The notes: generated from the letters alone by a model not told the origin. A DNA stretch of 64,000 nt from an uncultured Actinomycetota bacterium (GCA_963829525.1 CAWHIJ010000003.1:672001-736000), one strand, 5' to 3'; shown: positions 8,862 to 32,118, numbered from the stretch's first letter. Translations and numbers: made by a program.

Positions 8862-9402
8862 CTTCCTCGACCCGATCGCGGGTTTCGGCGTCACGTTCAC
8901 CACCATGTTCCGCAAGGTGACGACCGAGCAGTACCCCGAGGAGCGCAAGCCGATGATGCCGCGCTTCCACGGTCGGCATGTGCTCAACCGGTACTCCGAT
9001 GGCCTGGAACGGTGCATCGGCTGCGAGCTCTGTGCGTGGGCCTGTCCGGCTGACGCTATCTACGTCGAGGGTGCTGGAAACACCGACGAAGAGCGCTTCT
9101 CTCCTGGCGAGCGCTACGGCCGCGTCTACCAGATCAACTATCTTCGCTGCATCTTCTGCGGCATGTGCCTGGAGGCGTGCCCGACCAGAGCACTGACCAT
9201 GAGTCATGAGTACGAGCTGGCTGACAACAACCGCGCGGATCTGATCTTCGAGAAGCAAGACCTGCTTGCACCCCTGGGCACCGGGATGGTTCCACCGCCG
9301 CACCCCATGGCATCTGGCACCACTGAGCAGAACTACTACGCCGGTGAGTTCGACCAACCAGGTACCTCCGACGCCCCAGTTCCGAGCGGTGAGAAACCGT
9401 GA
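8854..9402 (+). CDS. nuoI: NADH-quinone oxidoreductase subunit I
   Basis: Two CxxCxxCxxxCP motifs; ATG after AAGGAGGAG. Confidence 0.95.
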
Positions 9403-10184: not shown

Positions 10185-10480
10185 ACCCGGAGAACTACCT
10201 CTACCTCGCGACAATCCTGTTCGCCATCGGATCAGTGGGCGTGCTTGTGCGCAGGAATGCGATCGTGGTGTTCATGTGCGTCGAGCTGATGCTCAACGCG
10301 TCCAACCTCGCCTTCGTGTCGTTCGCCAGGCTGAACGGAAACATTGACGGCCAGGTAGTGGCATTCTTCGTGATGGTGGTCGCCGCGGCCGAAGTTGTGA
10401 TCGGCCTCGCTGTCATCGTCACCATCTTCCGTACGCGTCGGTCGGCATCTGTCGACGATCCCAACCTGCTGAAGCTCTGA
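10181..10480 (+). CDS. nuoK: NADH-quinone oxidoreductase subunit K
   Basis: [27 protein letters not shown]. Confidence 0.95.
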
Positions 10481-10541
10481 TCACCATGACCTCACTGCGT
10501 GATCGGAATGGGCTCGTGCCCCAGACCCCGGGGAGTGCCCG

Positions 10542-12473: not shown

Positions 12474-12474
12474 C

Positions 12475-14046
12475 GTGAACGACTTTCCGGTACTGACCAC
12501 TCTCGGCCTCTTGCCGTTCGTCGCAGCCGTGCTTGTTGCTGCGCTGCCGCGGGGACGAGAACTGCTGGCCAAGCAGATCGCGCTGGCAGTGTCGCTCTTG
12601 ATGCTGGGCCTGACAGTGGCGATGGCCTTTTCGTTCGACCCGAATGCCGCCGAGCCGTTCCAGTTCGTCGAGAAGACAACCTGGATCGAGCGTTTTGGAA
12701 TCAGCTATGCAGTGGGCGTCGATGGCATAGCCCTGGTTCTGATTGCCATGGCTGTCTCGCTCGCACCGGTCGTCATCCTGGCTGGCTGGAACGACGCCGA
12801 CGACAATGATCGACACCGTCCGCAGACCTACTTTGCACTGTTGCTGGCATTGCTCGGTTGCATCGTGTACGTATTCGCTGCCACCGACCTCTTCCTGTTC
12901 TACGTCGCGTTCGAGGTCATGTTGGTTCCGGTCTACTTCTTGATCGGCATGTTCGGACGCGGTCAACGTACGTATGCGGCTGTCAAGTTCCTGCTGTATA
13001 GCCTGTTCGGCGGCCTGCTTCTACTGGCGGCGTTGATCGGGCTTTACGTCGTTTCAGCACAAGAGCTCGGGACGGGCACCTTCGACTGGACCCTGCTTGC
13101 GGGAATGCCGATCGACCCTGACACCCAGAAGATCCTCTTCGCCGGCTTCTTCTTTGCCTTTGCGATCAAGGCCCCCATGGTCCCGCTGCATACCTGGTTG
13201 CCGGACGCAGCAGCATCGGGAACGCCAGCGACCTCAACGCTTTTGGTCGGAGTTCTCGACAAGGTGGCGACGTTCGCGATGCTCCGCCTGGTCATTCCGA
13301 TCTTCCCGGATGCGTCCGAGTGGGCAGCCCCATTCGTGGTCGTCCTCGCCGTCATCAGCATTGTCTACGGGGCGTTGGTGGCCATCGGGCAGACCGACAT
13401 GTACCGGTTGATCGCGTACACCTCGGTGTCGCACTTCGGGTTCATCATCCTCGGCATCTTCGCCTTCACCGAGATCGGCGGTTCTGGTTCGGTGATCTAC
13501 ATGGTGGCGCACGGTCTGTCGACGGCTGCCTTGTTTATCGTTGCAGGCTATTTGGTCAAGCGCCGAGGATCGAGCCTGATCCCGTCGTTCGGCGGTGTCC
13601 AGCGAGTAGCGCCGATCCTGGCCGGTTTCTTCCTCTTCGCTGGGCTCTCCAGCCTCGCAATGCCCGGGCTGGCCAGTTTCGTCGGGGAGCTGACTGTGCT
13701 GATCGGGTCCTACCAGCGTTGGCCGGTTGCCGCCGGTATCGCCGTCATCGGGATCGTTCTCTCTTCTCTCTACGTGCTGATCATGTACCAGCGGGTGGCG
13801 ACCGGACCAGCAACTGAGAACGTCAAGGGGATGCGTGACGTTTTCCCGCGCGAACTGCTTGCCTTTGCCCCGATCATCGCCCTGACGGTCGCCGTTGGTG
13901 TGTTCCCCAAGCCGGTCTTCGATGCAGTGAACCCGGCGATCGCGCGCACCTACAGCTTCCTGAACGTCGAGCCGGTGCAACCAGACGTGCCCGTGGGTGA
14001 TGCGGGGCCCGAGAGCTCAGCGATCGAGGGGGAGGGGGACGAATGA
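12475..14046 (+). CDS. nuoM: NADH-quinone oxidoreductase subunit M
   Basis: FYVAFEVMLVP, IKAPMVPLHTWLPDA, LIAYTSVSHFG. Confidence 0.95.
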   Translation: MNDFPVLTTLGLLPFVAAVLVAALPRGRELLAKQIALAVSLLMLGLTVAMAFSFDPNAAEPFQFVEKTTWIERFGISYAVGVDGIALVLIAMAVSLAPVVILAGWNDADDNDRHRPQTYFALLLALLGCIVYVFAATDLFLFYVAFEVMLVPVYFLIGMFGRGQRTYAAVKFLLYSLFGGLLLLAALIGLYVVSAQELGTGTFDWTLLAGMPIDPDTQKILFAGFFFAFAIKAPMVPLHTWLPDAAASGTPATSTLLVGVLDKVATFAMLRLVIPIFPDASEWAAPFVVVLAVISIVYGALVAIGQTDMYRLIAYTSVSHFGFIILGIFAFTEIGGSGSVIYMVAHGLSTAALFIVAGYLVKRRGSSLIPSFGGVQRVAPILAGFFLFAGLSSLAMPGLASFVGELTVLIGSYQRWPVAAGIAVIGIVLSSLYVLIMYQRVATGPATENVKGMRDVFPRELLAFAPIIALTVAVGVFPKPVFDAVNPAIARTYSFLNVEPVQPDVPVGDAGPESSAIEGEGDE

Positions 14047-15599
14047 TGCCCCACCTCGTCGAGCCCTTCGACACCCCCTCGTTTGAGTACCAGCTACTTG
14101 CCCCGATGTTGATCGTCTTCGGGGGAGCCGTGATCGGCGTCTTGGTCGAGGCTTTCGCTCCGCGGAGCGCCCGTCGTAGCACGCAGCTGGTCTTGAGCCT
14201 GCTCACCCTCATTGCGGCCTTCGCCGCGCTGTTGGTGTGGACCAGACCAGAACTCGGCCAGATAGCGGCGTCGGGGAATGTCGCTATCGACGGCCCCGCC
14301 GTATTCTTCCAGGGCACCATCTTGATCCTGTCGTTCCTGGCCTTCCTGCTCTTCGCCGAGCGTGGAGTCGACTCGGCAGGTGATGCGTTCACACCGTCAG
14401 CCGCCACGATTCCGGGCAGCGCCTCCGAACGTGAGCTCACCACAGCAAGGGTGTCGCAGACCGAGATCTGGCCGCTGGCGCTCTTCTCGGTCGGTGGCAT
14501 GATGCTCTTCGTCGCCGCCGACGACCTGCTGACGTTCTTCGTCGCCCTTGAGGTCATGTCGCTGCCGCTCTATCTCCTCGTCGGGATGGCGCGTCGCCGG
14601 AGGCTGCTGAGCCAGGAGGCTGCGCTCAAGTACTTTCTGCTCGGGTCCTTCTCCTCAGCATTCCTGCTCTTCGGGTCGGCCTTCCTCTTCGGGTACTCCG
14701 GCTCGATCGCGTTCTCCGGCATCTACGACTCGTTGTCCACCGGCTTAGGGCTCGACCCGCTGCTCCTGATCGGTACGGGCCTTGTGTCAATCGGTCTCTT
14801 CTTCAAGGTCGGCGCCGTTCCGTTCCACTCCTGGGTTCCTGATGTCTACCAGGGTGCACCGACGCCAGTCACTGCATTCATGGCATCCGCCACCAAGGTG
14901 GCGGCCTTCGGAGCGATGCTTCGGTTGTACTACGTGGCTCTGGGTGACTACGACTGGAACTGGCGACCAATGTTCTGGGTCGTGACGATCCTCACGGTCG
15001 TTGTGGGTTCGGTCATGGCGATCACTCAGACCGACATCAAGCGCATGCTCGCCTATTCGTCGGTGGCTCAGGCCGGCTTCATCCTCATCGGTGTGACAGC
15101 GGCCTCGGACAAGGGCCTCTCGAGCTCGATGTTCTACCTCGCTGCCTACGGATTTGCGACGGTCGGCGCCTTCGCCCTCGTGACGTTGGTCCGGGACGGG
15201 ACCTCTGAGGCATCGCACCTGTCGCGATGGGCCGGACTTGGGCGAAGGGCCCCGATCCTGGCGGCGACTCTCTCGCTCTTCCTGCTTTCGTTCGCGGGGA
15301 TCCCGCTGACCAGTGGATTCATCGGGAAGTTCCTCGTCTTCGAAGCTGCAATCGATGGTGGCGCCACACCACTGGTGATCGTCGGCGCAGTCTTCAGCGC
15401 GGTGGCGGCGTTCTTCTACGTACGTGTGATCGTCCTCATGTACTTCTCGGACGCACCTGAGGATGCCCCGACAATTGCCGTCCCGAGCGCGCTCACGACG
15501 CTCTCCATCGCCGTTTGCGCTGCTGCGACGGTGGCCCTGGGTGTCTTCCCTGGCCCGGTCATCGATCTGGCTGAGCAGGCCGCCTCGTTCATCCGCTGA
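14043..15599 (+). CDS. nuoN: NADH-quinone oxidoreductase subunit N
   Basis: EAALKYFLLG, FKVGAVPFHSWVPDVYQGAP, KRMLAYSS. Confidence 0.95.
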   Translation: MMPHLVEPFDTPSFEYQLLAPMLIVFGGAVIGVLVEAFAPRSARRSTQLVLSLLTLIAAFAALLVWTRPELGQIAASGNVAIDGPAVFFQGTILILSFLAFLLFAERGVDSAGDAFTPSAATIPGSASERELTTARVSQTEIWPLALFSVGGMMLFVAADDLLTFFVALEVMSLPLYLLVGMARRRRLLSQEAALKYFLLGSFSSAFLLFGSAFLFGYSGSIAFSGIYDSLSTGLGLDPLLLIGTGLVSIGLFFKVGAVPFHSWVPDVYQGAPTPVTAFMASATKVAAFGAMLRLYYVALGDYDWNWRPMFWVVTILTVVVGSVMAITQTDIKRMLAYSSVAQAGFILIGVTAASDKGLSSSMFYLAAYGFATVGAFALVTLVRDGTSEASHLSRWAGLGRRAPILAATLSLFLLSFAGIPLTSGFIGKFLVFEAAIDGGATPLVIVGAVFSAVAAFFYVRVIVLMYFSDAPEDAPTIAVPSALTTLSIAVCAAATVALGVFPGPVIDLAEQAASFIR

Positions 15600-15600
15600 C

Positions 15601-16590
15601 ATGAATGAACTCGACCTCGGACACATCGACGCAGAGCTCGCTGCATCGCTGAACGACTCGCTCGAACGGGTCGAGAAACTGCTCCGAGGAAGTTTGGAGT
15701 CCGACTATCCGTTCGTCACCGAGGCATCGCGTCACCTGGTGGATGCTGGCGGCAAGCGCTTCCGTCCACTGCTGGTTCTGCTCGCCTCGCACTTCGGCGA
15801 CCCCTTGGCCGATGGTGTGCTTCCGGCCGCGGTGGTTGTTGAACTCACCCACCTGGCCACTCTCTACCACGACGACGTGATGGATGAGGCTGAGCTGCGG
15901 AGGGGCGCTCCCTCTGCAAATGCGCGTTGGGACAACACGGTGGCCATTCTCACCGGTGACTTTCTCTTCTCGAGGGCGTCCGAGCTGCTCGCGGATCTGG
16001 GTCCAGAGGCAGTACGTATCCAGGCGCAAACCTTCGGTCGACTCGTCGTTGGTCAGATCAAGGAAACCCTCGGACCGGCGGAGGAAGATGACCCGGTGCA
16101 GCACTATCTTGCAGTGGTTGCTGACAAGACAGGCTCGCTGATCGCTACGTCTGGCCGCTTCGGCGCGTTGATGTCTGGCGCCACGCCGGAGGTGGTGGAG
16201 GTCATGACCACGTACGGGGAGCAGATCGGGGTCGCCTTCCAGCTCGCAGACGATGTGCTGGATGTCAGCAGTGACAGCCGTGAGTCGGGCAAGACGCCGG
16301 GCACAGATCTTCGTGAGGGTGTCCGCACATTGCCGGTGTTGCACGCACTTGGCTCAACCGACCCTGGTGATGCGGAGCTGCAGGGGCTTCTGCGCGGCGA
16401 CCTCGCCGATGATGCCCGGCATGCGCGAGCGTTGGAACTCTTGCGGACTAGCGATGCCATGGCCCGATCTCGAGCAGATCTGCAGCGTCATGCCGACGCG
16501 GCGCGCGCCGTGCTTCGGCCACTCCCCGATGGGGCCGCTCGGTCCTCCCTTGAGTCACTCTGCGACGCGGTGATCTCTCGCGTCGGTTGA
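15601..16590 (+). CDS. Polyprenyl diphosphate synthase (probable menaquinone side chain)
   Basis: GGKRFRP, HDDVMD..LRRG (FARM), FQLADDVLD (SARM), KTG. Confidence 0.92.
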   Translation: MNELDLGHIDAELAASLNDSLERVEKLLRGSLESDYPFVTEASRHLVDAGGKRFRPLLVLLASHFGDPLADGVLPAAVVVELTHLATLYHDDVMDEAELRRGAPSANARWDNTVAILTGDFLFSRASELLADLGPEAVRIQAQTFGRLVVGQIKETLGPAEEDDPVQHYLAVVADKTGSLIATSGRFGALMSGATPEVVEVMTTYGEQIGVAFQLADDVLDVSSDSRESGKTPGTDLREGVRTLPVLHALGSTDPGDAELQGLLRGDLADDARHARALELLRTSDAMARSRADLQRHADAARAVLRPLPDGAARSSLESLCDAVISRVG

Positions 16591-19488: not shown

Positions 19489-20601
19489 TCAGGCCTCAAC
19501 GGTCCAGGTGTCTTTACCCGCAATCAGGTCTTCGAGTACCGGTCGGTCACCGATTCCCTGGTCGTCGACCGCAGCGGCGATCTGTTCGTGGAGCAGGTCG
19601 TCATAGGTGGCGCGGTGCACGTCTCGGTAGACCCCGATGGCGGTGGTGCGCAGCGAGCTCGGGTCTGCGAGTCGGGAGAGCGCGAAGGCGACCTCCGGAT
19701 TGGGAGCATGAGCATCGTGGACGATCAGCCGCTTGGTGCCGTACTCGGCTGCATCCACGACACGCAAAGTGCCATCGGGCATCCGGGCAACGCCATGCTG
19801 GCCCTCGGCTCCGAAGCGCACCGGCTCACCATGCTCGAGTCTGATCACCGCATCGTCCTTGGTGTCGGGCGACTTCAGCAGCTCGAATGCGCCGTCATTG
19901 AATATGTTGCAATTCTGGTAGATCTCGACGAGGGCGGTTCCGCGATGGTGCGCCGCTGCTCGCAGAACTCCGGTGAGGTGCTTGCGGTCTGAGTCGATCG
20001 TGCGTGCCACGAAGGAGGCCTCAGCGCCCAGCGCGAGAGACACCGGGTTGAACGGGACGTCGAGCGAGCCGAGCGGCGTCGATTTGGTGACTTTGCCCTG
20101 CTCCGAGGTTGGCGAGTACTGGCCCTTCGTCAGCCCGTAGATGCGGTTGTTGAAGAGCAGTACCTTGAGGTTGACGTTCCTGCGCAGGGCATGGATCAGG
20201 TGATTGCCGCCGATCGAAAGCGCGTCGCCGTCACCGGTGACGACCCAGACCGAGAGGTCGGGACGCGAAATGGCCAGCCCCGTGGCGATGGCAGGAGCCC
20301 GGCCATGGATGGAGTGCATGCCGTAGGTGTTCATGTAATACGGAAAGCGAGACGAGCACCCGATTCCCGAGACGAAGACGATGTTCTCGCGGCGGATGTT
20401 GAGTTCGGGTAGGAACGACTGAACGGCTGCCAGCACCGCGTAGTCGCCGCAGCCGGGACACCAGCGCACCTCCTGGTCAGTCTTGAAGTCCTTGGTGGTC
20501 AATGGTTCGTCGACCGTTGGGACTCCGGCGAGCGGATCGACGTGTGAGTTCTTGCCAGCCGCAGCGGCGATGAGCCCGAACCCGGGCGCTGGGCTATTCA
20601 T
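19489..20601 (-). CDS. korB: 2-oxoacid:ferredoxin oxidoreductase beta subunit
   Basis: WCPGCGD, SGIGCSSR, HGRA, GDGD...NN TPP motif, GLTKGQYSPT. Confidence 0.93.
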   Translation of the reverse strand: MNSPAPGFGLIAAAAGKNSHVDPLAGVPTVDEPLTTKDFKTDQEVRWCPGCGDYAVLAAVQSFLPELNIRRENIVFVSGIGCSSRFPYYMNTYGMHSIHGRAPAIATGLAISRPDLSVWVVTGDGDALSIGGNHLIHALRRNVNLKVLLFNNRIYGLTKGQYSPTSEQGKVTKSTPLGSLDVPFNPVSLALGAEASFVARTIDSDRKHLTGVLRAAAHHRGTALVEIYQNCNIFNDGAFELLKSPDTKDDAVIRLEHGEPVRFGAEGQHGVARMPDGTLRVVDAAEYGTKRLIVHDAHAPNPEVAFALSRLADPSSLRTTAIGVYRDVHRATYDDLLHEQIAAAVDDQGIGDRPVLEDLIAGKDTWTVEA

Positions 20602-22456
20602 CGGTGGCTGCCTCCTGGATCACAGATGCGAGCTCGGCTGCCTTGAACGGTAAACCACGCACCTGCGTGTATGACACGACGTCGACGAGGAACCGTCCGC
20701 GCAGCAGCAGAGCCAACTGCCCAAGGTTCATCTCGGGGAGCAGGACCTTGCGGTAGCCCTTCAGCACTTGCTCAGTGTTCTCCGGAAACGGGTTGAGATG
20801 ACGGAAGTGAGCTTGGGCAACGTGCAGACCAGCGTCTCGACAGCGCCGAACGGCTGCGCCGATAGGTCCGTAGGTGGACCCCCAACCGAGCACCAGAATG
20901 TCGGCGTCACCGTCAGGGTCGTCGACTTCGAGGCGAGGAATGGACGCAGCGATACGGTCCACCTTGGCTTGGCGGGTGCGCACCATCAAGTCGTGATTGG
21001 CTGGGTCGTATGAGACGTTGCCGCTGCCGTCTTGCTTCTCGAGGCCGCCGATGCGGTGCTCCAACCCGGCGGTGCCAGGCGCGGCCCACGCACGAGCGAG
21101 CGTCTGGGAGTCGCGCAGGTACGGCCAGAACTCCTCTGTGCCGTTGGCCGCTACGTGGTTGGCGACGATCGCGAAATCGGGATCGATCGGTGGAAGATCA
21201 TCGAGGTCAGGCAGCCGCCAAGGTTCTGAGCCATTGGCCAGGTATCCGTCGGACAGCACGATCACGGGTGTCCGATACGTCACGGCGATCCGCACCGCCT
21301 CCACGGCAGCGCTGAAGCAGTCGCTGGGGGAGCGCGGGGCGACTACTGGTACAGGTGCCTCGCCGTTCCTGCCGTATAGAGCCTGCAGCAGATCTGACTG
21401 CTCGGTCTTGGTGGGCAAGCCGGTCGATGGTCCACCACGCTGGATGTCGCAAATGACCAGCGGCAGCTCAAGCGAGACGGCCAGTCCTACCGTTTCCGCC
21501 TTGAGCGCCAGTCCGGGGCCGGACGTCGTGGTGACCCCGAGGTGTCCGCCGAATGCTGCGCCGAGTGCAGCGCCAACGCCAGCTATCTCGTCTTCGGCTT
21601 GAAAGGTGCGCACGCCGAACCGCTTGTGCTTGCTCAGCTCATGGAGGATGTCTGAAGCCGGGGTGATTGGGTAGGACCCGAGAAACAGAGGGAGCGATGA
21701 TCGCCACGAGGCGGCCAGCAGCCCGTACGCCATTGCGAGGTTTCCACTGATGTTGCGGTAGCGGCCCGGGCGTACCGGCGCCGGTTTGATCTCGTAGGAG
21801 ACCGAGAAGTCTTCGGTTGTCTCGCCAAAGCTCCAGCCGGCTTCGAAGGCGATGGTGTTTGCGCGCAGGAGCTCAGGCTTGCTGGCGAACTTCTTCTTGA
21901 GGAATTCGATGGTTCCCTCGGTCGGGCGGTGGTACAGCCAGCACAGCAGCCCGAGAGCAAACATGTTCTTCGCCCGCTCGGCATCCTTGCGGGTCACGTC
22001 AACGCCCTTGAGCGCTTCGACGGTCATCGAGGTGAGGGGGATGGCGTGCACCCGGTAGGCGTCGAGAGCACCGGCTTCCAGAGGGTTCTCGAGGTAGCCG
22101 ACCCGTGCCAGGTTGCGCTTGGTGAACTCGTCGGTGTTGACGATGAGGTCCGAGCCCCTCGGCAGGTCGGGGAGGTTGGCCTTGAGGGCGGCCGGGTTCA
22201 TCGCTACCAGGACGTTGGGGGAGTCCCCCGGAGTCATGATGTCGTGATCGGCGAAGTGCAGCTGGAAGGCCGAGACCCCAGGGAGAGTTCCTGCTGGCGC
22301 CCTGATCTCAGCCGGGAAGTCCGGCAAGGTAGCCAGGTCGTTGCCCAGCAGGGCCGTCTCACTGGTGAAGCGGTCACCGGTCAACTGCATGCCATCGCCA
22401 CTGTCACCTGCGAACCGAATGATCACTCGATCCAGCTGCACTACCTGCTTGGCCAC
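20594..22456 (-). CDS. korA: 2-oxoacid:ferredoxin oxidoreductase alpha subunit (gamma-alpha fusion)
   Basis: AGDSGDGMQL, EIRAPAG, YPITPAS, QAEDEI, TSGPG, QRGGPSTG.PT. Confidence 0.93.
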   Translation of the reverse strand: MAKQVVQLDRVIIRFAGDSGDGMQLTGDRFTSETALLGNDLATLPDFPAEIRAPAGTLPGVSAFQLHFADHDIMTPGDSPNVLVAMNPAALKANLPDLPRGSDLIVNTDEFTKRNLARVGYLENPLEAGALDAYRVHAIPLTSMTVEALKGVDVTRKDAERAKNMFALGLLCWLYHRPTEGTIEFLKKKFASKPELLRANTIAFEAGWSFGETTEDFSVSYEIKPAPVRPGRYRNISGNLAMAYGLLAASWRSSLPLFLGSYPITPASDILHELSKHKRFGVRTFQAEDEIAGVGAALGAAFGGHLGVTTTSGPGLALKAETVGLAVSLELPLVICDIQRGGPSTGLPTKTEQSDLLQALYGRNGEAPVPVVAPRSPSDCFSAAVEAVRIAVTYRTPVIVLSDGYLANGSEPWRLPDLDDLPPIDPDFAIVANHVAANGTEEFWPYLRDSQTLARAWAAPGTAGLEHRIGGLEKQDGSGNVSYDPANHDLMVRTRQAKVDRIAASIPRLEVDDPDGDADILVLGWGSTYGPIGAAVRRCRDAGLHVAQAHFRHLNPFPENTEQVLKGYRKVLLPEMNLGQLALLLRGRFLVDVVSYTQVRGLPFKAAELASVIQEAATDE

Positions 22457-22536
22457 GGTCTGATGCTACGTCCAGGCTGACCCCTACGATGGGTCGCCTA
22501 GTGCCTTGAGGCATAAATCACGCGGAGGAGGGCGGC
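22457..22536. promoter_or_regulatory. Compact divergent promoter region korA / nuoA2
   Basis: Minus strand TAGCAT (22468-22463) 6 nt before the korA GTG (leaderless); plus strand TACGAT (22485-22490); GGAGGAGG RBS for nuoA2. Confidence 0.5.
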
Positions 22537-22911
22537 ATGGACGACGGGTATATGGGCGGCTACGCGGTCATCGCCGCAGCCGTGGCCCTCGGCGTCATCT
22601 TCGTCGCGACCGGGCTGCTGGCGAACCGGCTGCTCCGCCCGGTGGTGGTCACCGCCGAGAAGTACACCACCTACGAGTGCGGACTTGACCCTGTTGGTGA
22701 CGGATGGGCGCAGACTCATATCCGCTACTACGTCTTCGCCTATCTCTACGTGATCTTCGCCGTTGACGCCGTCTACCTCTTCCCTTGGGCGACGGTCTTC
22801 GACGTAGCCGGGTACGGGCTTGTGACCCTGGTCGAGATGGTCGTCTTCATCGGCTTTCTGGCTACCGGCATCGGGTACGCCTGGCGGCGCGGCGTCCTTA
22901 GGTGGGTGTGA
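22537..22911 (+). CDS. nuoA: Complex I-like subunit A (operon 2)
   Basis: [37 protein letters not shown]. Confidence 0.9.
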
Positions 22912-22912
22912 G

Positions 22913-23458
22913 GTGACGGCCGTCGATCTCCCGGCTCCGCGAGTCGGTGCGCTGTCCTCCCTGGCGCCCAAGCCGGTGCGCCTGGTGCTCAACTGGGGAA
23001 GGCGCTACAGCCTCTGGGTCTTCAACTTCGGGCTCGCCTGCTGCGCCATCGAGTTCATCGCAACCTCGATGAGCCGGTACGACTTCATTCGCCTTGGCGT
23101 CATTCCGTTCGCGCCGAGTCCTCGACAGGCCGACCTGATGGTGGTCTCCGGCACGGTGACAGACAAGATGGCGCCGGCGATCAAGCGACTCTATGAGCAG
23201 ATGCCCGAGCCCAAGTACGTCATCTCGTTCGGCGCCTGCTCCAACTGCGGCGGCCCCTACTGGGACAGCTACTCGGTGACCAAGGGTGTCGACCAGATCA
23301 TCCCTGTCGACGTCTACGTTCCGGGCTGCCCGCCTCGCCCGGAGGCGCTGCTCCAGGGAATCCTGAAGCTGCAGGAGAAGATCGCCGATGAGAATGTCGG
23401 CACTCGGTATCGGCCTTCGGCGGATGCTCTCAGGCGACCACTGGTGGAATCGTCGTGA
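22913..23458 (+). CDS. nuoB: Complex I-like subunit B (operon 2)
   Basis: [27 protein letters not shown]. Confidence 0.93.
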
Positions 23459-24063
23459 GAATGGCAGGCGACACCGCCTCGCGATGGTCCGACATGGATG
23501 CGCTATTGGCGGCAGCTGCTGCGGCGGGTATCGACGCCGAGGTCAGCGAGAGTTTCGGCGACGTCACGGTGTCCTTCCGGCCAGATGAGTGGGTCGCCGG
23601 ATTGACGATGCTCCGCGACCGGCTGGCGCTCTCGTACTTCGACTGGTTGTCGGCAGTCGACGAAGGCGGCTCGGAGGGGTTCAGCGTCTTCTGTCACCTT
23701 TACGACCCGAGCAGTCGTGGCCACCTGCTCGCTCGCACGACGCTGGCGGCAGACGATGCGTCGCTGGCCACGGCCACCGGGGTCTTCCGCGGTGCTGCCT
23801 GGCACGAGCGCGAGACGCACGAGATGTTCGGGATCGATTTCCCCGGCCATCCGCACCTGGTGACACTGCTGCTCTCGGATGAGTTCATCGGGCATCCGCT
23901 TCGCAAGGACTTCGTGCTCACCGCAAGGGCATCAAAGTCCTGGCCGGGGGCCAAGGAGCCCGGTGAGTCCAGTGAGGGCACTCCGAGCCGGCGCAAGATG
24001 CAGCCCCCTGGCGTTCCTGACCCGGCCTGGGGCCCGCACAACGATGGTGGGGCAGATGACTGA
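23455..24063 (+). CDS. nuoC: Complex I-like subunit C (operon 2)
   Basis: [18 protein letters not shown]...GHPLRKDF. Confidence 0.9.
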
Positions 24064-25006
24064 CGCCCTCGAGGCTGCGCTCGGCCTCTTCGTCGTCTTC
24101 GCTGCCTTCCTCGTCCTTCCTTTGCTCGTCGGGCAGCTCGAGCACAAGGTGATGGCGCACATGCAGGCCAGGGTTGGTCCGATGTACGCGGGGGGCTTTC
24201 ACGGCTGGGCCCAGCTGGTCGCCGATGGCGTGAAGTTCGCCCAGAAGGAAGAGGTCGTCCCGGCTGCCGCTGACCGCACCATCTTCCGGCTTGCGCCTGC
24301 GCTCGCCCTGATCCCCTACTTCGTTGCCATGGTTGCCATCCCCATCGGCCCCGGCCTCGTAGGTCAGGAAATCGATGCTGGAGTCTTCTTCGTCCTTGCC
24401 GTCATGGGAGTCGGTGTCATCGGAACGCTGATGGCTGGGTGGGCGAGCGCAAACAAGTACTCGCTCCTTGGGGCCGTCCGCCAGGTCTCGCAGCTCATGG
24501 CGTACGAGCTGCCATTTGTGCTCGCGGCTGCGTCGGTTGTGGTGGCTGCAGGGTCGCTAGGGTTCACCGATATCGTCGACGCGTGGCAGCCGTGGTGGCT
24601 GATCTGGCAGCTCCCTGCTGGCGTGGTCTTCTTCGTCGCCGGTCTGGCCGAGTTGAACCGCCCGCCCTTCGACATGCCGATCGCGGATGCCGAGATCATC
24701 TTCGGCCCGTACACCGAGTACACCGGCTTGAGGTTCGCCCTCTTCCTGCTCGCCGAGTACGCAGGCATCGTCCTGCTGTGCTTCCTCACCGCGGTGCTCT
24801 TCCTGGGCGGTTGGAACGGTCCTTTCAGTGATTCATGGCTTTGGACGTTCGCGAAGGCCGGAGTGCTCGCTTTCGTGGTCATCTGGCTCCGCGTGAGCTA
24901 CCCCCGACTCCGGGCTGACCAGCTGCAGAAGCTCGCCTGGCAGGTTCTCATCCCAGTGGCGCTGGCTCAGCTGCTCCTGACCGGGGTGGTGACGGTCGCG
25001 TGGTGA
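24056..25006 (+). CDS. nuoH: Complex I-like subunit H (operon 2)
   Basis: [47 protein letters not shown]. Confidence 0.92.
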
Positions 25007-25566
25007 AGGACGGCGGCGAGAGATCCGGTGGTAACGGCATCGGACTTTTCAAGGGGCTGGGAATCACCTTGTCCACGATGACGAAACGGTCGATCACTGA
25101 GCAGTACCCCGACGTTCAGCCGGAGCTCCCGCCGAGAAGCCGGGGGGTCATCGCACTGTTCGAAGAGAACTGCACTTCCTGCATGCTCTGTGCTCGTGAG
25201 TGCCCCGACTGGTGCATCTACATCGACTCGCACAAAGAGACCATTCCTGCGACTGAAGAGGGTGGTCGTGAGCGTTCGCGAAACGTTCTCGATCGTTTCG
25301 CGATCGACTTCTCCCTCTGCATGTACTGCGGCATCTGCATCGACGTGTGTCCCTTCGATGCCCTCTTCTGGTCTCCCGAGTTCGAGTACTCCGAGTTCGA
25401 CATCCGGAACATGACTCATGAGAAGGATCGGCTAGGGCAGTGGATGGCCACGGTTCCGCCACCCCCGGCGCTCGATCCATCTGCCGCCGAGGCCAAGGAG
25501 CTGCAAGGCGTCCGAAAGAAGGCTGCGGCAGCGACGCCCCCAACCGAGTCGGACGGCGACTCGTGA
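25000..25566 (+). CDS. nuoI: Complex I-like subunit I (operon 2)
   Basis: [12 protein letters not shown] and [12 protein letters not shown]. Confidence 0.92.
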
Positions 25567-26090
25567 GCGATCGGTCCCTGCTGTCACCGACCGGGGTGGA
25601 CCTAGCCTTCACGCTGCTCGGCCTGGTGGCTGCTGGGTCGGCGCTGATGGTCGTGACAACCAGACAGATCGTGCATGCAGCACTTTGGCTGGTCGTCTCC
25701 CTGGGCGCTGTCGCTGGCTGCTTCCTGGTCATGACGGCCGAGTTCGTTGCGTGGATGCAGGTGCTGATCTACCTCGGAGCGGTGGTCGTCCTGCTGCTCT
25801 TCGGCATGATGCTCACGCGCGCGCCAATTGGTCCGTCCGAAGAGCTCTCCGGCACGAACCGGATTGCCGCCCTCTTCGCTGCTCTTGCGATCGTGACGGT
25901 GCTGGGAGTACTCATCGTTGACGCCTTCGACAGCACGATGATCGACGTCGAAGACCAGAAGTCAACCGCCTCTGTGATTGGTGAGTCGCTCTTCCGCTAC
26001 TGGGTGCTCCCTTTCGAGGCACTATCGGTTCTGCTGCTCTCTGCGCTTGTCGGTGCCATCGCGATCTCCAAGTCGGATGAGGAGGCGTAA
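25563..26090 (+). CDS. nuoJ: Complex I-like subunit J (operon 2)
   Basis: [38 protein letters not shown]. Confidence 0.9.
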
Positions 26091-26405
26091 GTGCACCTTT
26101 CGCTTCCGTTGCTCCTCTCCGTAGCGCTCCTCGGGATCGGGGTCTATGGCGTTCTGATTCGGCGTAATGCCATTCTCATCCTCATGTCCGTTGAGCTCAT
26201 GCTCAACGGAGTCAACATCAGCCTGGTCGCCTTCGACGTCTACTGGTCAGATGCGCTTCGCGCCGGACAGTCGTTGGCGATCTTCGTCATCACCATCGCG
26301 GCTGCAGAGATCGGTCTTGGTCTCGCGATCTTGTTGCTGCTCTATCGGGTCCGTCGCACGATCGCGATCGATGAGGCTACCGAGCTGCGTGAGGAAACCA
26401 CATGA
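26091..26405 (+). CDS. nuoK: Complex I-like subunit K (operon 2)
   Basis: [27 protein letters not shown]. Confidence 0.92.
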
Positions 26406-28255
26406 CCATCGCCATTGCCATGGTGCTGATTCCTGGCCTGGCCGCCCTGCTGGGTCTGGTGCTTGGGGGAATGTCTCGTGCTGTCGCAGCAGCGATTGCA
26501 GTCGTCGGCCCGGCGACGGCTCTTGGCCTTGCGGTCTACCTGGCGGTGCAAGAGCCGTGGGTGGAGCCGCTGGTCGGGACCGGCTTTGGCGAGGGCACCT
26601 TGCCCATAGGGGCAACCGTTGTCGACGGACTTGCCAGCACGGTCGCGCTGATGGTCTGCGTCGTTTCGTTGCTGGTGCAGGTCTACTCCATCAGTTACAT
26701 GCGTGAAGAGCCGAGGTACGCCAGCTATGCCGCCTTCATCTCGCTCTTCACCGCGGCGATGTTGGCCGTCGTTGTCGCCGGTGACCTGCTGCTGCTGGTC
26801 ATCGGCTGGGAGGTCATGGGTCTCTGCTCCTACCTTCTGATCGGACAGCACTGGGAGCACGAAGAGGCCAGGCGTGCTGCGGTCAAGGCGTTCCTTGTGA
26901 CCAAGGTCGGTGACGTTGGATTCATCATCGGCATCGTCGTCCTGATTGGAGCAACAGCGACAACCCTGCTGCCGGGAGCGGTCCAGGCCGCTGCTGCCGA
27001 CCCCACCGCTGCAGCGGTTGCATCCGAGTCTGATCTTGCTCGGCGTGCTGGGTAAGTCGGCGCAGTTCCCGCTACATGCCTGGCTCCCGGATGCCATGGC
27101 CGGTCCTTCGCCGGTGAGTGCGCTCATCCACGCGGCGACCATGGTGGCGGCCGGCGTCTACGTCGTTGCCCGGATGTACCCGATGTACCTGGCGTCACCT
27201 GCAGTTCTGACGACGATGGCGGTGATCGCCTGCATCACAATGCTCGGTGCTGCGGTGATCGCCTTAGCCCAGGACGACCTGAAGCGGGTCTTGGCGTGGT
27301 CCACGGTCAGCCAGCTTGCCTACATGGTGGCGGCGCTGGCCCTGGGCGCAAGGGATGCGGCAATCTTCCACATGCTCTCGCACGCCTTCTTCAAGGCGCT
27401 GCTCTTCCTTGCCGCGGGAGCGGTGATCCATGCCGTCGGCAGCGGCGCGCTGCGTGACTTGGGCGGGCTTCGTCGACTCGATGCCGGTCACCTTCGTCAC
27501 GATGACGATCGGCCTGCTGGCACTGGTCGGGGTCTTCCCGCTTGCGGGGTTCTTCAGCAAGGAGTCTGTGCTTGTTGCTGCCGAACACGCGGCACACGGT
27601 GAGGCCCAGGTCGCTCCGTGGGTTGGTTGGACCGTTCTGGTGGTGGCCATCATCACCATCGCTGTGACTGCCGCATATGCACTACGACTGTGGTTGCTGA
27701 CCTGGTCCGGTCCACAGCGGGGCGCCCGAGCCGGGGTCTCCGAGGCGTCTGCAGCGATGTACGTGCCACTGGTGCTGCTCGCCGTTCCAGCCGTCGTCTT
27801 CGGCTTCAGCGCCCTCAACGTGGCCTGGCTTCCGACATGGATTCAGGCCAACGCGCACAGAGCCGCTCGGGACGACTGAGGCCCTGACGCCTGAGACCGC
27901 GACCATCGTTCTGTCGCTGGTCGCGGTTGCCGCCGGCGCCGGAGCTGTCCTGATCTCCTTGAACCGCGAGATGCTGGGACGTGGACGCTTCGGTTCCTTC
28001 GTGGCCGGAGGGCTCGGCGTTGATGTGGTCTACGAGGTGCTGGTAGTCCGCCCATTCCTCGTCATCGTCGGCTGGGTAACCGCCTTCGATCGACTGGCTA
28101 TCGGGCGTTCGGTCTCGGGGGTCGCCGTGGGGACGTTGAAGGCCGGCTCGCTGCTGCAACGCCCGTATCGCGGGGATGTTCAGCGCTACGTCTCCACCGC
28201 GGTCACAGCCGTCGTTGTCGCTGTCGTCGTCATGCTGGTGGCGGTGTCCACATGA
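26402..28255 (+). CDS. nuoL: Complex I-like subunit L (operon 2), three +1 frameshifts (about 27024, 27475, 27860)
   Basis: [14 protein letters not shown] in ORF 26402; [31 protein letters not shown] in ORF 26946; GFFSKE in ORF 27430; C-terminal GDVQRY in ORF 27959. Confidence 0.85.
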
Positions 28256-29760
28256 CCTCGTCATGGTTGCTGCCTGCACTTCTGCTCGTCCCCCTTCTGG
28301 GTGCCCTGGTGATGTTGCTTGCCGGACGAGGCGCTGAACGTTGGGCTACGTGGTTCGGAGTGGGAGTGCAGTCGTTAGGCCTTCTATTGACGCTCGTTGT
28401 CCTGTCGCAGTTCAGTCAGACAGAGTCCGGCGGCATCCAGATGGTCGTCGAGGCAGATTGGATCCCCGAGCTTCTCGTCAGCTTCCGTATCGGCGTCGAC
28501 GGCATCTCAGTGCCGCTGGTGGCCCTCACATCACTGCTGGGCTGGTGTGCGGCGGTCTACACGGTGCGACGGGTCCCGGAACCGGGGCGCGCTCGCGCCT
28601 TCGTCGGCCTGCTCCTGCTGCTGCAGGTTGGGATGCTCGGCACCTTCATGGCGCTCGACCTCATCCTCTTCTTCCTCTTCTTCGAGGTGGTGCTGGCGCC
28701 CATGTGGTTCCTCATCGCATTCTGGGGAAGCGGCCAGCGACGTCGCTCGGCCAATACCTTCATCCTCTACACGGTGCTCGGCTCGGTAGTCATGCTGCTG
28801 GGATTCCTGGTTGTCATCGTCGATACCGGGTCAGCCGACATGGTGGTTCTCGCGAATGGGCTGGGCGCGCAGATGTCGACGGGCACGCAGTTAACCGCTG
28901 CCCTGTTGATCCTGGGAGGTCTTGCCGTCAAGACTCCGATGTGGCCACTGCACACCTGGCTTCCGGACGCTCACACCGCTGCACCAACGGTTGGCTCGGT
29001 GCTTCTGGCAGGGGTTTTGCTGAAGATGGGTACCTACGGGATGGTGCGTATCGTCGTACCGACCCTCCCAGACGCCATGGTGAGCATCGCTCCCTACCTA
29101 GCGGCGTTCGCTGTCGTTGGCATCCTCTACGGAGCCATGGCCAGCTATGGGCAAGACGACCTGAAGCGCGTCATTGCGTTCTCATCGGTGGGTCACATGG
29201 GCTTCGTACTCCTTGGCATCTCGACTCTTTCTGTCGTCGGCATCAACGCTGCTCTCTTCGGCAACATCGCCCATGGGCTCATCACGGGCCTGCTCTTCTT
29301 CGTGGTTGGGGGCATCAAGCAGCGCACGGGCAGCACCGCCTTTGCTGAGCTTCCCCGGGGTCTTTATGCCTCGGCACCCCGACTGGGATTTCTCTTGGGC
29401 TTTGCGGCGGTAGCCAGCCTCGGAATGCCAGGCCTTGCTGGTTTCTGGGGCGAGTTCCTCGCACTCGTTGGCGCATATCACCCGCTCGTGCCGAGTCGGT
29501 TCTTCTACCGAGCCATGCTCGTCTTGGCTGCTATCGGCATGGTGTTGGCCGCTGCGTACTTCCTCAAGGTGCTGAGGCGTGTGGGTCAGGGTCCGGCGCC
29601 CGAGGCGCAGCTGGCCGATGTTGCCACTGATGAGTGGCTGTCCTGGACTCCGCTGGTTTCTCTCGTCGTAGTCCTTGGTGTTGCGCCCTTCCTGCTCCTC
29701 CGGGTCACCGAACCGGCAGTTCGGATGGTCGTGGAGTCAGTGGCTGGGACTCTGCCATGA
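28252..29760 (+). CDS. nuoM: Complex I-like subunit M (operon 2)
   Basis: FFEVVLAPM, VKTPMWPLHTWLPDAH, LLKMGTYG, IAFSSVGHMG. Confidence 0.92.
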   Translation: MTSSWLLPALLLVPLLGALVMLLAGRGAERWATWFGVGVQSLGLLLTLVVLSQFSQTESGGIQMVVEADWIPELLVSFRIGVDGISVPLVALTSLLGWCAAVYTVRRVPEPGRARAFVGLLLLLQVGMLGTFMALDLILFFLFFEVVLAPMWFLIAFWGSGQRRRSANTFILYTVLGSVVMLLGFLVVIVDTGSADMVVLANGLGAQMSTGTQLTAALLILGGLAVKTPMWPLHTWLPDAHTAAPTVGSVLLAGVLLKMGTYGMVRIVVPTLPDAMVSIAPYLAAFAVVGILYGAMASYGQDDLKRVIAFSSVGHMGFVLLGISTLSVVGINAALFGNIAHGLITGLLFFVVGGIKQRTGSTAFAELPRGLYASAPRLGFLLGFAAVASLGMPGLAGFWGEFLALVGAYHPLVPSRFFYRAMLVLAAIGMVLAAAYFLKVLRRVGQGPAPEAQLADVATDEWLSWTPLVSLVVVLGVAPFLLLRVTEPAVRMVVESVAGTLP

Positions 29761-31220
29761 CCATCCAGTCGATCGACCTGCTGACACTGTCCCCAACTCT
29801 TGTCGTGGCGTTCGGCGCGCTTCTGGCTCTGGTGGCCGAGCTGGTCACCGGGCGGGGGCAGGTCGCCATTGGTGTCGGCCTGGGCGCGTTGGTGGCGGCA
29901 ACTCCTCTCGCGGTCTTGGCGAGCGGACAGCAGACTCTGTGCAACGGGGTTGACGCATCCTGCGCCTATGTGGTCTCCCCACTGGCAGTCGCGTTGCAGT
30001 TGATCGTGTTGACGAGCACCGCTGTGGTGCTGCTGATGGCATCGGCGGACGTCGCCGCCCACACCGTTCCGGGAGGTGAGTTCACCTTCCTCATTCTCTG
30101 CTCGGCGTCCGGTGCGGTTCTCGTTCCCGCGACCAACGACCTGGTGACCTTGATCGTGGCCCTCGAGGTGGTGTCCTTGCCCACGTTCGCGCTCGTGGCG
30201 CTTCGTCGGGGCGAACCGCGTGCCGCCGAGGCTGCACTGAAGGCGTTCATCTATTCAATCGTCTCGGTTGCCGTGTCGCTCTACGGCATCTCGTTGCTGT
30301 ATGGAACCACGGGCGCGGTCGCGTTCGACCAGCTTGCCGCTGTTGCAACGCTGACCGAGCCCACTCCACTTGGTACCGCGGGTCTGGTCATGGTGCTGGC
30401 TGTCATCGGCTTCAAGGTTGCCGCGGTTCCCTTCCACGCCTGGGCGCCAGATACCTATCAGGGTGCGACAGTTCCTGTGGCCGCCTACCTTTCGGTGGTC
30501 TCCAAGGCTGCAGGGTTCGGTGCGCTTCTCCTGGTGACGTGGACCTTTGCAGGGTGGAGCGAGATCTGGGCTCCGGTCATTGCCGTGCTGGCTGGCCTCA
30601 CGATGCTCGTCGGCAATGTGGTGGCCCTGAAGCAGCGGCACGCGGTGAGGCTGTTGGCATGGTCGTCCATTGCGCAGGCGGGCTACATATTGGTGCCGCT
30701 CGCGGCAGTATCCGGATCGGTGGTCTGGGGACCCGGGGTGACCGGCGCCGTCATCGGCTACCTGGTCGCCTATGCGGCGATGAATCTTGGCGCCTTCGGT
30801 GTCGTTGCCATTGTCGCGAGACGCACCGGCGCCGCGTCGCTTGCCGACTACCGGGGGCTGGTGCGGCGTAGCCCCTGGCTGGCGGTTGCCCTCGCCTTCT
30901 TCCTCGCGAGCCTCGCCGGTCTGCCACCGGGGTTGATCGGCCTGTTGGTGAAGGTTCGGGTGCTGCTCGTTCCGGTTGACGCCGGAGTGTGGTGGCTAGC
31001 GGCTGTCATGGCAGTTGCCACGGTGATCGGCCTGGCCTACTACCTGGCGTGGGCCGCACTCCTCTTCCGGCGGTTGGACACCGCTGATGACGGAGGACCG
31101 CCCGAGCAACTGGTCAACGGGTCATGGACCTCGACCGTCGCCGTAGCCGTTTGCCTAGCCCTGACCCTGGCCTTCTCGTTGGCTCCTTCGCTGGCCCTCG
31201 GCCTGGTCGACCGGCTCTGA
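29757..31220 (+). CDS. nuoN: Complex I-like subunit N (operon 2)
   Basis: EAALK, FKVAAVPFHAWAPDTYQGA, RLLAWSSIAQAGY. Confidence 0.92.
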   Translation: MTIQSIDLLTLSPTLVVAFGALLALVAELVTGRGQVAIGVGLGALVAATPLAVLASGQQTLCNGVDASCAYVVSPLAVALQLIVLTSTAVVLLMASADVAAHTVPGGEFTFLILCSASGAVLVPATNDLVTLIVALEVVSLPTFALVALRRGEPRAAEAALKAFIYSIVSVAVSLYGISLLYGTTGAVAFDQLAAVATLTEPTPLGTAGLVMVLAVIGFKVAAVPFHAWAPDTYQGATVPVAAYLSVVSKAAGFGALLLVTWTFAGWSEIWAPVIAVLAGLTMLVGNVVALKQRHAVRLLAWSSIAQAGYILVPLAAVSGSVVWGPGVTGAVIGYLVAYAAMNLGAFGVVAIVARRTGAASLADYRGLVRRSPWLAVALAFFLASLAGLPPGLIGLLVKVRVLLVPVDAGVWWLAAVMAVATVIGLAYYLAWAALLFRRLDTADDGGPPEQLVNGSWTSTVAVAVCLALTLAFSLAPSLALGLVDRL

Positions 31221-31263: not shown

Positions 31264-32118
31264 ATGAACCGCTACGTCAACGGAGTCAAGACCGCCTTCC
31301 TCCTCGCGCTGATGGCCGCGGTCATCATGCTGATCGGCCTCTGGCTGGGGGGCACTCAGGGTCTGGTCATCGCCTTTGTGATCGCGCTGGGGATGAATGC
31401 CTTCTCGTACTGGAACAGCGGCTCTCTTGCAATTCGCGCGATGAAGGCCCGTCCGGTTACCGAGGCTGAGCAGCCGACGATGTACCGGATCGTGCAGAAC
31501 CTCGCCATGCAGCAGGGTGAGCCGATGCCCCAGCTCTACGTGTCGCCGACGATGGCGCCCAATGCGTTTGCCACGGGCCGCAACCCACAGAACGCCAAGG
31601 TTTGTTGCACCGAAGGCATCCTGCAACTGCTCGACGAGCGCGAGCTGCGGGGGGTCTTGGCCCACGAGCTCGCCCACGTCTACAACCGAGACATACTGAT
31701 CGCATCAGTAGCCGCCACCATGGCCTCGGTGATCATGTTCATCGCGCAGTTCGCCTGGTTGCTTCCGATCGGGGGCGACCGCGAGCGAGGGAACATCTTC
31801 GGCTCCCTGGCCCTGATGATTCTCGGGCCGATTGCTGCGTCGCTGATCCAGTTCGCCATCAGCAGGTCGCGTGAGTACCAAGCCGACCAGTCGGGGGCGG
31901 AGTACACCGGAGATCCCATGGCGCTGGCCTCTGCGCTTCGCAAGCTCGAGCAAGGAACCCAGGCAGCGCCGCTGCGGCCCGAGCCAGAGCTGGAGACGGC
32001 CAGTGCGCTGATGATCGCCAACCCATTCCGGGCCAGCGGCATGACCAAGCTCTTCTCGACGCACCCCGCCACCGCAGACCGCGTCGCGCGCCTCGAGGAG
32101 ATGGCGGGCTATCGATGA
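31264..32118 (+). CDS. htpX: Zinc metalloprotease HtpX
   Basis: PNAFATGRNP, HELAH (HExxH), SRSREYQAD, FSTHP. Confidence 0.95.
   Translation: MNRYVNGVKTAFLLALMAAVIMLIGLWLGGTQGLVIAFVIALGMNAFSYWNSGSLAIRAMKARPVTEAEQPTMYRIVQNLAMQQGEPMPQLYVSPTMAPNAFATGRNPQNAKVCCTEGILQLLDERELRGVLAHELAHVYNRDILIASVAATMASVIMFIAQFAWLLPIGGDRERGNIFGSLALMILGPIAASLIQFAISRSREYQADQSGAEYTGDPMALASALRKLEQGTQAAPLRPEPELETASALMIANPFRASGMTKLFSTHPATADRVARLEEMAGYR

Follow-up and report, generated by a model that had tools for sequence, protein, structure and literature searches.

Organization of the korBA-nuo2 locus

We analysed a 64,000-nucleotide stretch, hereafter the window (CAWHIJ010000003.1:672001-736000 of assembly GCA_963829525.1), from the genome of an uncultured Actinomycetota bacterium, which comprises 2.96 Mb in 3 contigs and is 97% complete. 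Within it, korB and korA (19489-22456, minus strand), the genes of a predicted two-subunit 2-oxoacid:ferredoxin oxidoreductase, face an operon with the order nuoA2-B2-C2-H2-I2-J2-K2-L2-M2-N2 (22537-31220, plus strand), which encodes subunits of a second complex I, Nuo2 (Table 1). A complete NADH-type operon, nuo1, lies upstream. This layout, on which the open reading frame (ORF) map and the Pfam matches agree, is that of the original prediction, an earlier reading of the sequence by a model, which described the second operon as a headless complex I and proposed that it carries electrons from KorAB-reduced ferredoxin to menaquinone. The descriptive part of that prediction holds in each particular: no NuoE, NuoF or NuoG, which together form the NADH-input module (N-module), occurs among the ORFs or Pfam matches of the operon; the korA GTG (22456) and the nuoA2 ATG (22537) are 80 bp apart; and nuo1 (91-15599), with its D, E, F and G genes, ends 6.9 kb before nuoA2, as against the predicted distance of about 7 kb.

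A further absence was overlooked in that account, namely that nuoD is also missing from the operon. The NuoC2 and NuoH2 reading frames overlap, and there is therefore neither room for nuoD nor a remnant of it between them. Three NuoD-like genes were found in the whole genome with PF00346, these being nuoD1 of nuo1, a hydrogenase-like gene, and a stand-alone nuoD2 about 99 kb upstream of the window. With the ten subunits encoded in the window, NuoD2 completes the core of respiratory complex I (A, B, C, D, H, I, J, K, L, M and N). The neighbours of nuoD2 are folate-synthesis-type genes and a large upstream ORF taken as ftsH, all named by ORF order and size alone.

All eleven subunits are present, as are their redox, quinone-site and pump motifs. 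The Fe-S ligands are intact, as had been predicted: NuoB2 has the four Cys of cluster N2, and alignment and motif searching identify both CxxCxxCxxxCP motifs of NuoI2, with eight Cys for two [4Fe-4S] clusters. In NuoD2 the GPQHPATHG loop and HRGAEKLFEVRDY are retained and align with the His and Tyr of the quinone site in solved NuoD chains; we take the His of the HPxxHG loop and the Tyr of HRGxEK......Y to be the quinone-site residues. Conserved Lys/Glu/His motifs occur in NuoL2 (read from the intact copy of genome G006), NuoM2 and NuoN2, and two Glu occur in NuoK2, the list of charged residues for the antiporter-like subunits and NuoK being the one we presume to apply.

Identity between Nuo2 subunits and their Nuo1 paralogs is only 29-55%. 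Among congeners, which for NuoD2 include the unpublished genome G024, NuoB2, NuoD2 and NuoH2 are 91-97% identical and NuoI2 84-91%. Judged by these sequences, Nuo2 is an ancient paralog of Nuo1, with no recent duplication, that has been held under strong constraint. NuoD2 matches cyanobacterial NdhH (6hum_H, E 4.8e-82) better than it does mycobacterial NuoD (8e9g_D, E 5.1e-72), and Aquifex NuoCD2 and Thermus Nqo4 are likewise better matches than the mycobacterial protein. We also observed a WPG(A/V)KEP(G/A)E segment after the NuoC core that is common to nuo2-type NuoC proteins across the phylum and absent from NuoC1, as well as a class-specific C-terminal tail of NuoC2 (PSRRK..PPGVPDPxWGP), to which long acidic extensions are added in some lineages.

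The window operon belongs to a known enzyme type

The species-genome collection contains at least 569 relatives of NuoC2, and we mapped the loci of the best 80 of these (hereafter the named loci), which come from Streptomyces, Kitasatospora, Streptacidiphilus, Nonomuraea, Streptosporangium, Actinomadura, Actinoallomurus and metagenome-assembled genomes. Every named locus that is long enough shows the order A2-B2-C2-H2-I2-J2-K2-L2-M2-N2-htpX, and no nuoD, nuoE, nuoF or nuoG lies within any of the 80. The N-module that would make a 14-subunit NADH-type enzyme is accordingly absent both from the window operon and from all of its orthologous loci. Given the same gene order, the lack of an N-module and the orthology of the proteins, the window operon therefore encodes the nuo2 enzyme of Streptomyces.

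In streptomycetes, "nuoA2, B2, D2, and H2 to N2" are described as contiguous except for nuoD2, apparently forming one operon, and as having no N-module (Moody et al., PMC3765725); Streptomyces ambofaciens is described in the same way (PMC8388888), and nuo2 subunits have been found by proteomics (PMC9739823). A 2022 paper calls the function of nuo2 unclear and suggests a hybrid machinery with nuo (PMC9239103). The original prediction, which pointed to a similar Streptomyces set without a settled donor, is confirmed by two of these sources (PMC3765725, PMC9239103). The S. coelicolor cluster (SCO4599-4608 plus a separate nuoD2) resembles ours in gene order, lack of an N-module and unlinked nuoD2, and it too is followed by htpX and preceded by korBA in the opposite orientation, the korAB genes there bearing the numbers SCO4594/5 (PMC8981147); identity is 55-64% for NuoC2 and about 70% for NuoH2. 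It differs in that several kilobases, rather than 80 bp, lie between korA and nuoA2, and the AbrC two-component genes SCO4596-4598 are divergent from SCO4599 (PMC9739823). The published Streptomyces lists also omit nuoC2, which Pfam places between B2 and H2 here. The enzyme type is thus already described in Streptomyces, and the window copy is another member of it. We are highly confident that the headless complex I of 11 subunits encoded by the locus together with nuoD2 is real and functional and is the ortholog of Streptomyces nuo2.

Frame changes in nuoL2

A tblastn comparison with NuoL1 showed that nuoL2 spans three frames in the assembly, and DNA alignment with four congeners placed single-base insertions near 27024, 27478 and 27855, none of them in a homopolymer. 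Taken at face value, these would make the operon a decaying relic that is being lost in this host. Other few-contig assemblies of the same family also have frame changes in nuo2 membrane genes (J2, L2, M2 and N2 in G001 (L020); M2 in G018 (L026)), with korAB, EamA and htpX intact in both, and membrane genes are missing altogether from many lineages. We compared the assembly with Logan contigs of four public metagenome runs (X1, X2, X3 and X5) aligned on 22400-33800, many of which are pieces 95-99+% alike. Base 27024 (27026 in X5) is missing from the contigs of all four runs, as is base 27855; base 27479 is missing from those of X1-X3, X5 being without coverage there. At each of the three sites the omission accounts for the entire covering depth. 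A fourth indel, at 32546, which splits an unrelated amine-oxidase-like ORF, is likewise removed in the X1 contig and looks like an assembly indel as well. Decay is further opposed by the shifted frames, each of which still matches homologs at 84-91%, by the insertions, which total +3, and by the single-frame nuoL2 in 12 of the 13 relatives' loci that hold the gene. Since metagenome contigs lack the inserted bases, we reject a nuoL2 pseudogene; the frameshifts are most probably consensus errors of a few-contig assembly, nuoL2 is probably intact in the natural population, and genuine loss of the operon is extremely unlikely.

A reduced form retains the quinone module

The distribution of nuo2 was examined in 251 genomes of the class, all at least 90% complete and the same for each marker, which include the unpublished genomes G039, G044, G050 and G253; the loci that were fetched and mapped contain none from unpublished genomes. 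NuoC2 (E <= 1e-20) was found in 124 genomes and NuoD2 (E <= 1e-90) in 125. The two coincide closely in spite of being unlinked: 121 genomes have both, 123 have neither, and only 7 are discordant, with NuoC2 alone in three and NuoD2 alone in four (one of them G050). NuoH2 (best E <= 1e-100) was found in 86 genomes, all of which also have NuoC2. It was not found at this threshold in the other 38 NuoC2 genomes, among which at least G020 is truncated by the end of a contig, G040 and G229 being uncertain cases. One observation concerns G229, a single contig, where nuoC2, nuoD2, korA and nuoF are present and no NuoH of either type was found at E <= 1e-50.

Mapping showed what the reduced form contains. 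Ten loci (G029, G022, G100, G115, G124, G066, G258, G051, G228 and G041) keep only B2, C2 and I2, the membrane genes having gone at three separate places (A2; H2; J2-N2). The resulting layout is korBA followed by B2-C2-I2, with htpX after I2 in four of the ten. korAB adjoins nine of them, and the tenth, G228, has no korA. The Cys ligands of NuoB2 and NuoI2 are intact in the two reduced forms examined, and the unlinked NuoD2 keeps its His and Tyr in all seven reduced-form genomes examined. The conserved core of the enzyme thus seems to be the quinone-reducing Q-module, B2-C2-D2-I2. Because only these four subunits remain in about a third of nuo2 genomes, the reduced Q-module probably uses other subunits at the membrane and rides on the Nuo1 arm.

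KorAB and its linkage to nuo2

The domain content of KorA and KorB predicts a two-subunit 2-oxoacid:ferredoxin oxidoreductase with a gamma/alpha fusion, a thiamine pyrophosphate-binding beta subunit and no delta subunit, and the predicted substrate is 2-oxoglutarate. KorB is 70-97% identical to its relatives, and C48, C51, C82 and C231 are invariant in 13 aligned sequences, a pattern that fits one [4Fe-4S] site. Pfam detected no Fer4-type delta domain in either protein. Lacking a delta subunit, KorAB must pass its electrons to an external acceptor.

Comparison of 13 intergenic regions revealed two motifs that are kept in relatives, GATGCTACGTC, located 7 nt before the korA GTG, and CCCCTACGATGGG, about 13 bp from the first. 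We interpret them as probable back-to-back -10-like boxes. A scan of 22300-22700 with an E. coli-type model returned no promoters and no terminators. As the first motif ends 7 nt before the GTG, korA may be leaderless.

The association of korAB with nuo2 extends through the class. In 15 of the 17 loci of relatives korAB adjoins nuo2 and is divergent from it, and the genomes of the other two, G023 and G030, have no korA at the threshold used. Of the 80 named loci, 67 have korA 5' of nuo2 and on the other strand; the remaining 13 show none, eight of them having less than 3.3 kb of upstream sequence and five about 9 kb. The original prediction is therefore upheld within the class as to linkage, but not in 16 loci from other classes. 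Its shared 80-bp promoter region fared likewise: it is present in the window, but such a region characterises the family of the window and some others rather than Streptomyces, and the median gap in the 67 named loci with korA is 4.3 kb. Neither the korAB link nor the reduced form was found described in the papers we searched, a search that did not extend to subscription journals or supplements.

nuo2 outside the class

NuoD2-like genes (E <= 1e-75) occur in 127 of 201 genomes from across the phylum, a sample that includes the unpublished G261, G277, G305, G324, G342, G372, G396 and G419. We mapped 20-kb stretches around 16 such loci from other classes (the outgroup loci). In 12 of them D2 is located inside a nuo operon, between C2 and H, with 11 in canonical order and one (L136) in another order; in the other four D2 stands alone. 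Five of the 12 D2-containing operons lie directly 3' of nuo1, and two have htpX after N2. The polyprenyl synthase gene that lies between nuo1 and nuo2 in the window was also found in the nuo1-nuo2 gap of three of the four outgroup loci examined (L123, L124 and L126). This enzyme may make the menaquinone side chain. Across the phylum htpX is a conserved downstream neighbour of nuo2, located 3' of N2 or, in the reduced form, of I2. A block of nuo1, polyprenyl synthase, 11-gene nuo2 and htpX is likely to be old in the phylum; in the class of the window, korBA, together with EamA, is likely to have moved in front of nuo2 and nuoD2 to have been relocated away.

The electron donor of Nuo2

Partial complex I enzymes that use flavodoxin, F420H2 or ferredoxin are known (PMC4453560), and the physiological acceptor of the mycobacterial 2-oxoglutarate oxidoreductase was reported in 2009 as not identified (PMC2773412). 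We consider a route that would join the two systems. KorAB would oxidise 2-oxoglutarate and reduce a 7Fe-type ferredoxin encoded elsewhere; an ORF for a ferredoxin of this type is located at about C3:899.2-899.6 kb, and a search for single-cluster ferredoxins with PF13370 gave no match in the genome. The low-potential carrier would deliver electrons to the exposed NuoI2 cluster, from which they would reach menaquinone at the NuoD2/NuoH2 site by way of NuoB2 (cluster N2), and this flow would drive proton pumping via NuoL2, NuoM2 and NuoN2. The route is supported by the lasting association of korAB with the Fe-S genes of the Q-module, which continues even after the membrane genes have been lost. 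As a whole, the reading of Nuo2 as a headless pump fed by a low-potential carrier from KorAB appears to us evenly balanced between right and wrong. As to its parts, ferredoxin is a plausible donor, with the ferredoxin-to-menaquinone reading falling slightly short of such a balance, and KorAB is proposed more tentatively as the main source of that ferredoxin.

Several observations weigh against this coupling. First, although korA (E <= 1e-100, 203 of the 251 class genomes) occurs in 119 of the 124 NuoC2 genomes, in line with such a coupling, it also occurs in 84 of the 127 without NuoC2, a comparison for which we claim no test, as related genomes are not independent. korAB is far commoner than nuo2, and five genomes have nuoC2 without korA (G023, G030, G085, G210 and G228). 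Second, adjacency is variable. The korA-nuoA2 gap in the 67 named loci ranges from 96 to 8488 bp, with a median of 4289 bp and only two below 500 bp; Streptomyces and its relatives have 1.8-8.5 kb of other genes in between. The reduced module and korA are on different contigs in all three family f28 genomes for which both positions were among the matches listed (G071, G112 and G245). EamA, korBA, nuo2 and htpX are all syntenic, so that adjacency may be partly inherited gene order. Third, no korA or korB was found in the 16 outgroup 20-kb stretches; korA is encoded elsewhere in all five outgroup genomes checked, more than 1 Mb away in two single-contig cases. Fourth, a further complex-I-related cluster at C3:1100-1107 kb, which we take to resemble the Hyc/Ehr type, could be another sink for ferredoxin. 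Fifth, nuoL2 is formally broken in the present assembly. Finally, NuoF (E <= 1e-120, 239 of 251 genomes) is encoded in all 124 NuoC2 genomes, usually in one copy, and none of the 124 has nuo2 without nuo1 and nuoF, which makes it possible that NuoEFG is borrowed from nuo1.

Such borrowing would make Nuo2 an NADH isoenzyme or hybrid, in which Nuo2 or its Q-module B2-C2-D2-I2 joins the NuoEFG of nuo1 (and, in the reduced forms, the Nuo1 arm as well) to give a further NADH:menaquinone oxidoreductase that differs in the properties of its quinone site or its pumping, korAB being a mere syntenic neighbour. The universal, usually single-copy nuoF of nuoC2 genomes speaks for this, the reduced forms need other subunits if they act at the membrane, and korAB is unlinked outside the class; the Streptomyces authors, too, have proposed cooperation or a hybrid machinery (PMC9239103, PMC3765725). 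However, the 11-gene form that lacks E, F and G occurs phylum-wide, and nuoF is so common in the sample that its co-presence is little informative. A long, independent headless history is also the simpler explanation for the low identity to Nuo1 and for NuoD2 being no closer to mycobacterial NuoD than to NdhH. We regard the NADH-dependent alternative as unlikely, with an appreciable residual chance.

Nuo2 might instead be fed by an unlinked input subunit or by another reduced carrier, with KorAB not the main source. The unlinked nuoD2 shows that subunits can be encoded apart, NuoC2 carries a conserved tail, and korAB is unlinked in the outgroup loci. An F420H2 donor was rejected, as PF04432, which would detect an FpoF/FrhB input subunit, had 0 matches in the 97% complete genome. 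An orphan N-module was also rejected, as the one other NuoEFG-like set belongs to a formate dehydrogenase of the FdsGBA(D) type, which has a full molybdopterin domain. In four outgroup loci the gap between nuo1 and nuo2 held only polyprenyl synthase, UDG-like and GNAT-like genes, and hence no candidate. These results argue against a separate donor, which we think has a small chance of being correct.

The same gene linkage would be expected if Nuo2 ran in reverse, using the proton motive force to drive electrons from menaquinol to ferredoxin and so supplying a reductive KorAB or other ferredoxin-dependent enzymes. In principle complex I can run in either direction. Its synthesis of NADH in chemolithotrophs is reported (Spero et al., PMC4453560), but the mycobacterial enzyme is described as oxidative, within the tricarboxylic acid (TCA) cycle (PMC2773412). 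Reverse operation is, in our view, very unlikely.

A last alternative dispenses with a free ferredoxin pool. NuoI2 would itself be the delta partner of KorAB, which would dock on B2-C2-D2-I2 to give a proton-pumping 2-oxoglutarate:menaquinone oxidoreductase, carried in about a third of lineages as a head on the Nuo1 arm. Two hints point this way, the position of B2-C2-I2 beside korAB in nine of the ten mapped reduced loci and a weak complex prediction for KorB and NuoI2. The latter scored 0.41 (runs 0.43, 0.35 and 0.41), as against 0.04 for the best of three controls, with a partner pLDDT of at least 76 and at least 68% of contacts common to the runs. Of 80 solved complexes, 58 pass the mark that it passed, as do 2 of 110 mismatched pairs; passes at or below 0.60, however, comprise only 7 of the 80 solved complexes and both passing mismatches, so that, unless the pairing was probable to begin with, a pass this weak will be wrong more often than not. 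Mere likeness may also account for it, since a ferredoxin domain is docked at this place in solved 2-oxoacid oxidoreductases. Direct docking is accordingly improbable in our estimate. If it were true, one membrane pump would be common to two alternative heads, for NADH and for 2-oxoglutarate.

Other genes of the window and genome

Two genes lie between nuo1 and korB in addition to the polyprenyl synthase gene, and the second of them, EamA, is a conserved korB neighbour in most relatives. An amine-oxidase/FAD-oxidoreductase-like gene (32174-33767) is split into ORFs at 32174-32674 and 32580-33767. Further downstream (49700-62450), ORFs of 1199, 1288, 700 and 397 aa agree in size and order with rpoB, rpoC, fusA and tuf, an assignment that rests on size only.

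Table 1. Genes and other features of the window and related genes elsewhere in the genome. Positions are those of the window unless a location prefix is given.
Feature	Position	Strand	Evidence and remarks
nuo1, complete 14-gene NADH-type operon nuoA-N	91..15599	+	ORFs; Pfam for D, E, F, G; own-genome matches PF00346, PF01058
Polyprenyl synthase, between nuo1 and nuo2	15463..16590	+	PF00348
BNR/Asp-box repeat protein, between nuo1 and korB	16702-18213		
EamA-type transporter, between nuo1 and korB	18524-19450		
korB, predicted beta subunit of two-subunit 2-oxoglutarate:ferredoxin oxidoreductase	19489..20601	-	Pfam TPP_enzyme_C, E 1.9e-30
korA, fused gamma/alpha subunit	20594..22456	-	Pfam POR, POR_N, PFOR_II only
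Divergent intergenic region, 80 bp	22457..22536	.	13 intergenic regions compared
nuoA2	22537..22911	+	PF00507, E 7.6e-30; YECG motif
nuoB2, four Cys ligands of cluster N2	22913..23458	+	PF01058; CC, GAC, GCPP motifs
nuoC2	23455..24063	+	PF00329, E 5.6e-31
nuoH2, start set at in-frame ATG 24044	24044..25006	+	PF00146, E 3.4e-101; 91-92% identity in congeners
nuoI2, two [4Fe-4S] motifs	25000..25566	+	2x Fer4; eight Cys aligned
nuoJ2	25440..26090	+	PF00499; start probably later than 25440, as the Pfam match starts at residue 67
nuoK2, both membrane Glu residues	26091..26405	+	PF00420; VEL, AAE motifs
nuoL2	26402..28255	+	PF00662 and PF00361 pieces; three frames in assembly
nuoM2	28252..29760	+	PF00361, E 2e-65; Lys/Glu motifs
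nuoN2	29634..31220	+	PF00361, E 4.8e-55; motifs; start uncertain, as the ORF overlaps the end of nuoM2
htpX-like M48 peptidase	31264..32118	+	PF01435
nuoD2, 381 aa	G000:C3:572933-574078	-	PF00346, E 4.9e-73; ~99 kb upstream of window
FdsG/FdsB/FdsA-like genes with fused FdsD domain (L139)	G000:C3:334500-339600		Likely NAD-dependent formate dehydrogenase
Third complex-I-related cluster (L140, L003)	G000:C3:1100000-1107400		Antiporter-like genes, NuoH-like gene, 430-aa NuoCD/[NiFe]-hydrogenase-large-subunit-like gene
NuoB-like gene (L007)	C3:1159577-1160380		53 kb from third cluster

Comparison with other systems and implications

NdhS, NdhV and NdhO are ferredoxin-docking accessory subunits of cyanobacterial NDH-1. 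Nuo2 resembles this enzyme and its chloroplast counterpart in having 11 core subunits and no NuoEFG, and the NuoD2-NdhH match is on a par with that to any NuoD. It differs in that no extra ferredoxin-docking genes are found in the window operon (NdhS, NdhV and NdhO were not searched genome-wide), that it coexists with a full NADH-type complex I, and that its quinone is presumably menaquinone. A parallel in logic is provided by Campylobacter jejuni, in which a 2-oxoglutarate oxidoreductase is linked to a flavodoxin-fed complex I; there a single operon keeps nuoG, and two other genes replace nuoE and nuoF. The flavodoxin donor of that complex is reported in PMC4453560. Electrons thus pass in both cases, if Nuo2 is fed by KorAB, from a 2-oxoacid:acceptor oxidoreductase through a low-potential carrier, rather than from NADH, to complex I, but the nuo2 operon has nothing in place of E, F and G, and the C2/H2 overlap leaves no gene between. 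The archaeal Fpo and Fqo complexes likewise have an 11-subunit core with a non-NADH donor, F420H2 or ferredoxin (PMC4453560), whereas our genome has no FpoF/FrhB-type gene. KorAB itself has the same domain set as the Mycobacterium tuberculosis enzyme (Rv2454c-Rv2455c), which is air-stable and consists of two subunits, a gamma/alpha fusion and a beta subunit (PMC2773412). In contrast to the window, family f38 has korA and no nuoC2 or nuoD2 in its sampled genomes; if, as we assume, these are mycobacteria, KorAB does not need Nuo2.

Two old gaps meet at this locus, namely what feeds the N-module-less Nuo2 and what re-oxidises the air-stable KorAB. The survey offers three handles on them: the 11-subunit set with an unlinked nuoD2, the complete 11-gene operon of other classes, and the frequent Q-module-only form, which is mostly located beside korAB. 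The feature is real and correctly described, and the ferredoxin link is a plausible, testable hypothesis. Should Nuo2 be driven by ferredoxin that KorAB has reduced, more energy would be conserved at the 2-oxoglutarate step of the TCA cycle than via NADH, which would bear on redox balance in these aerobes.

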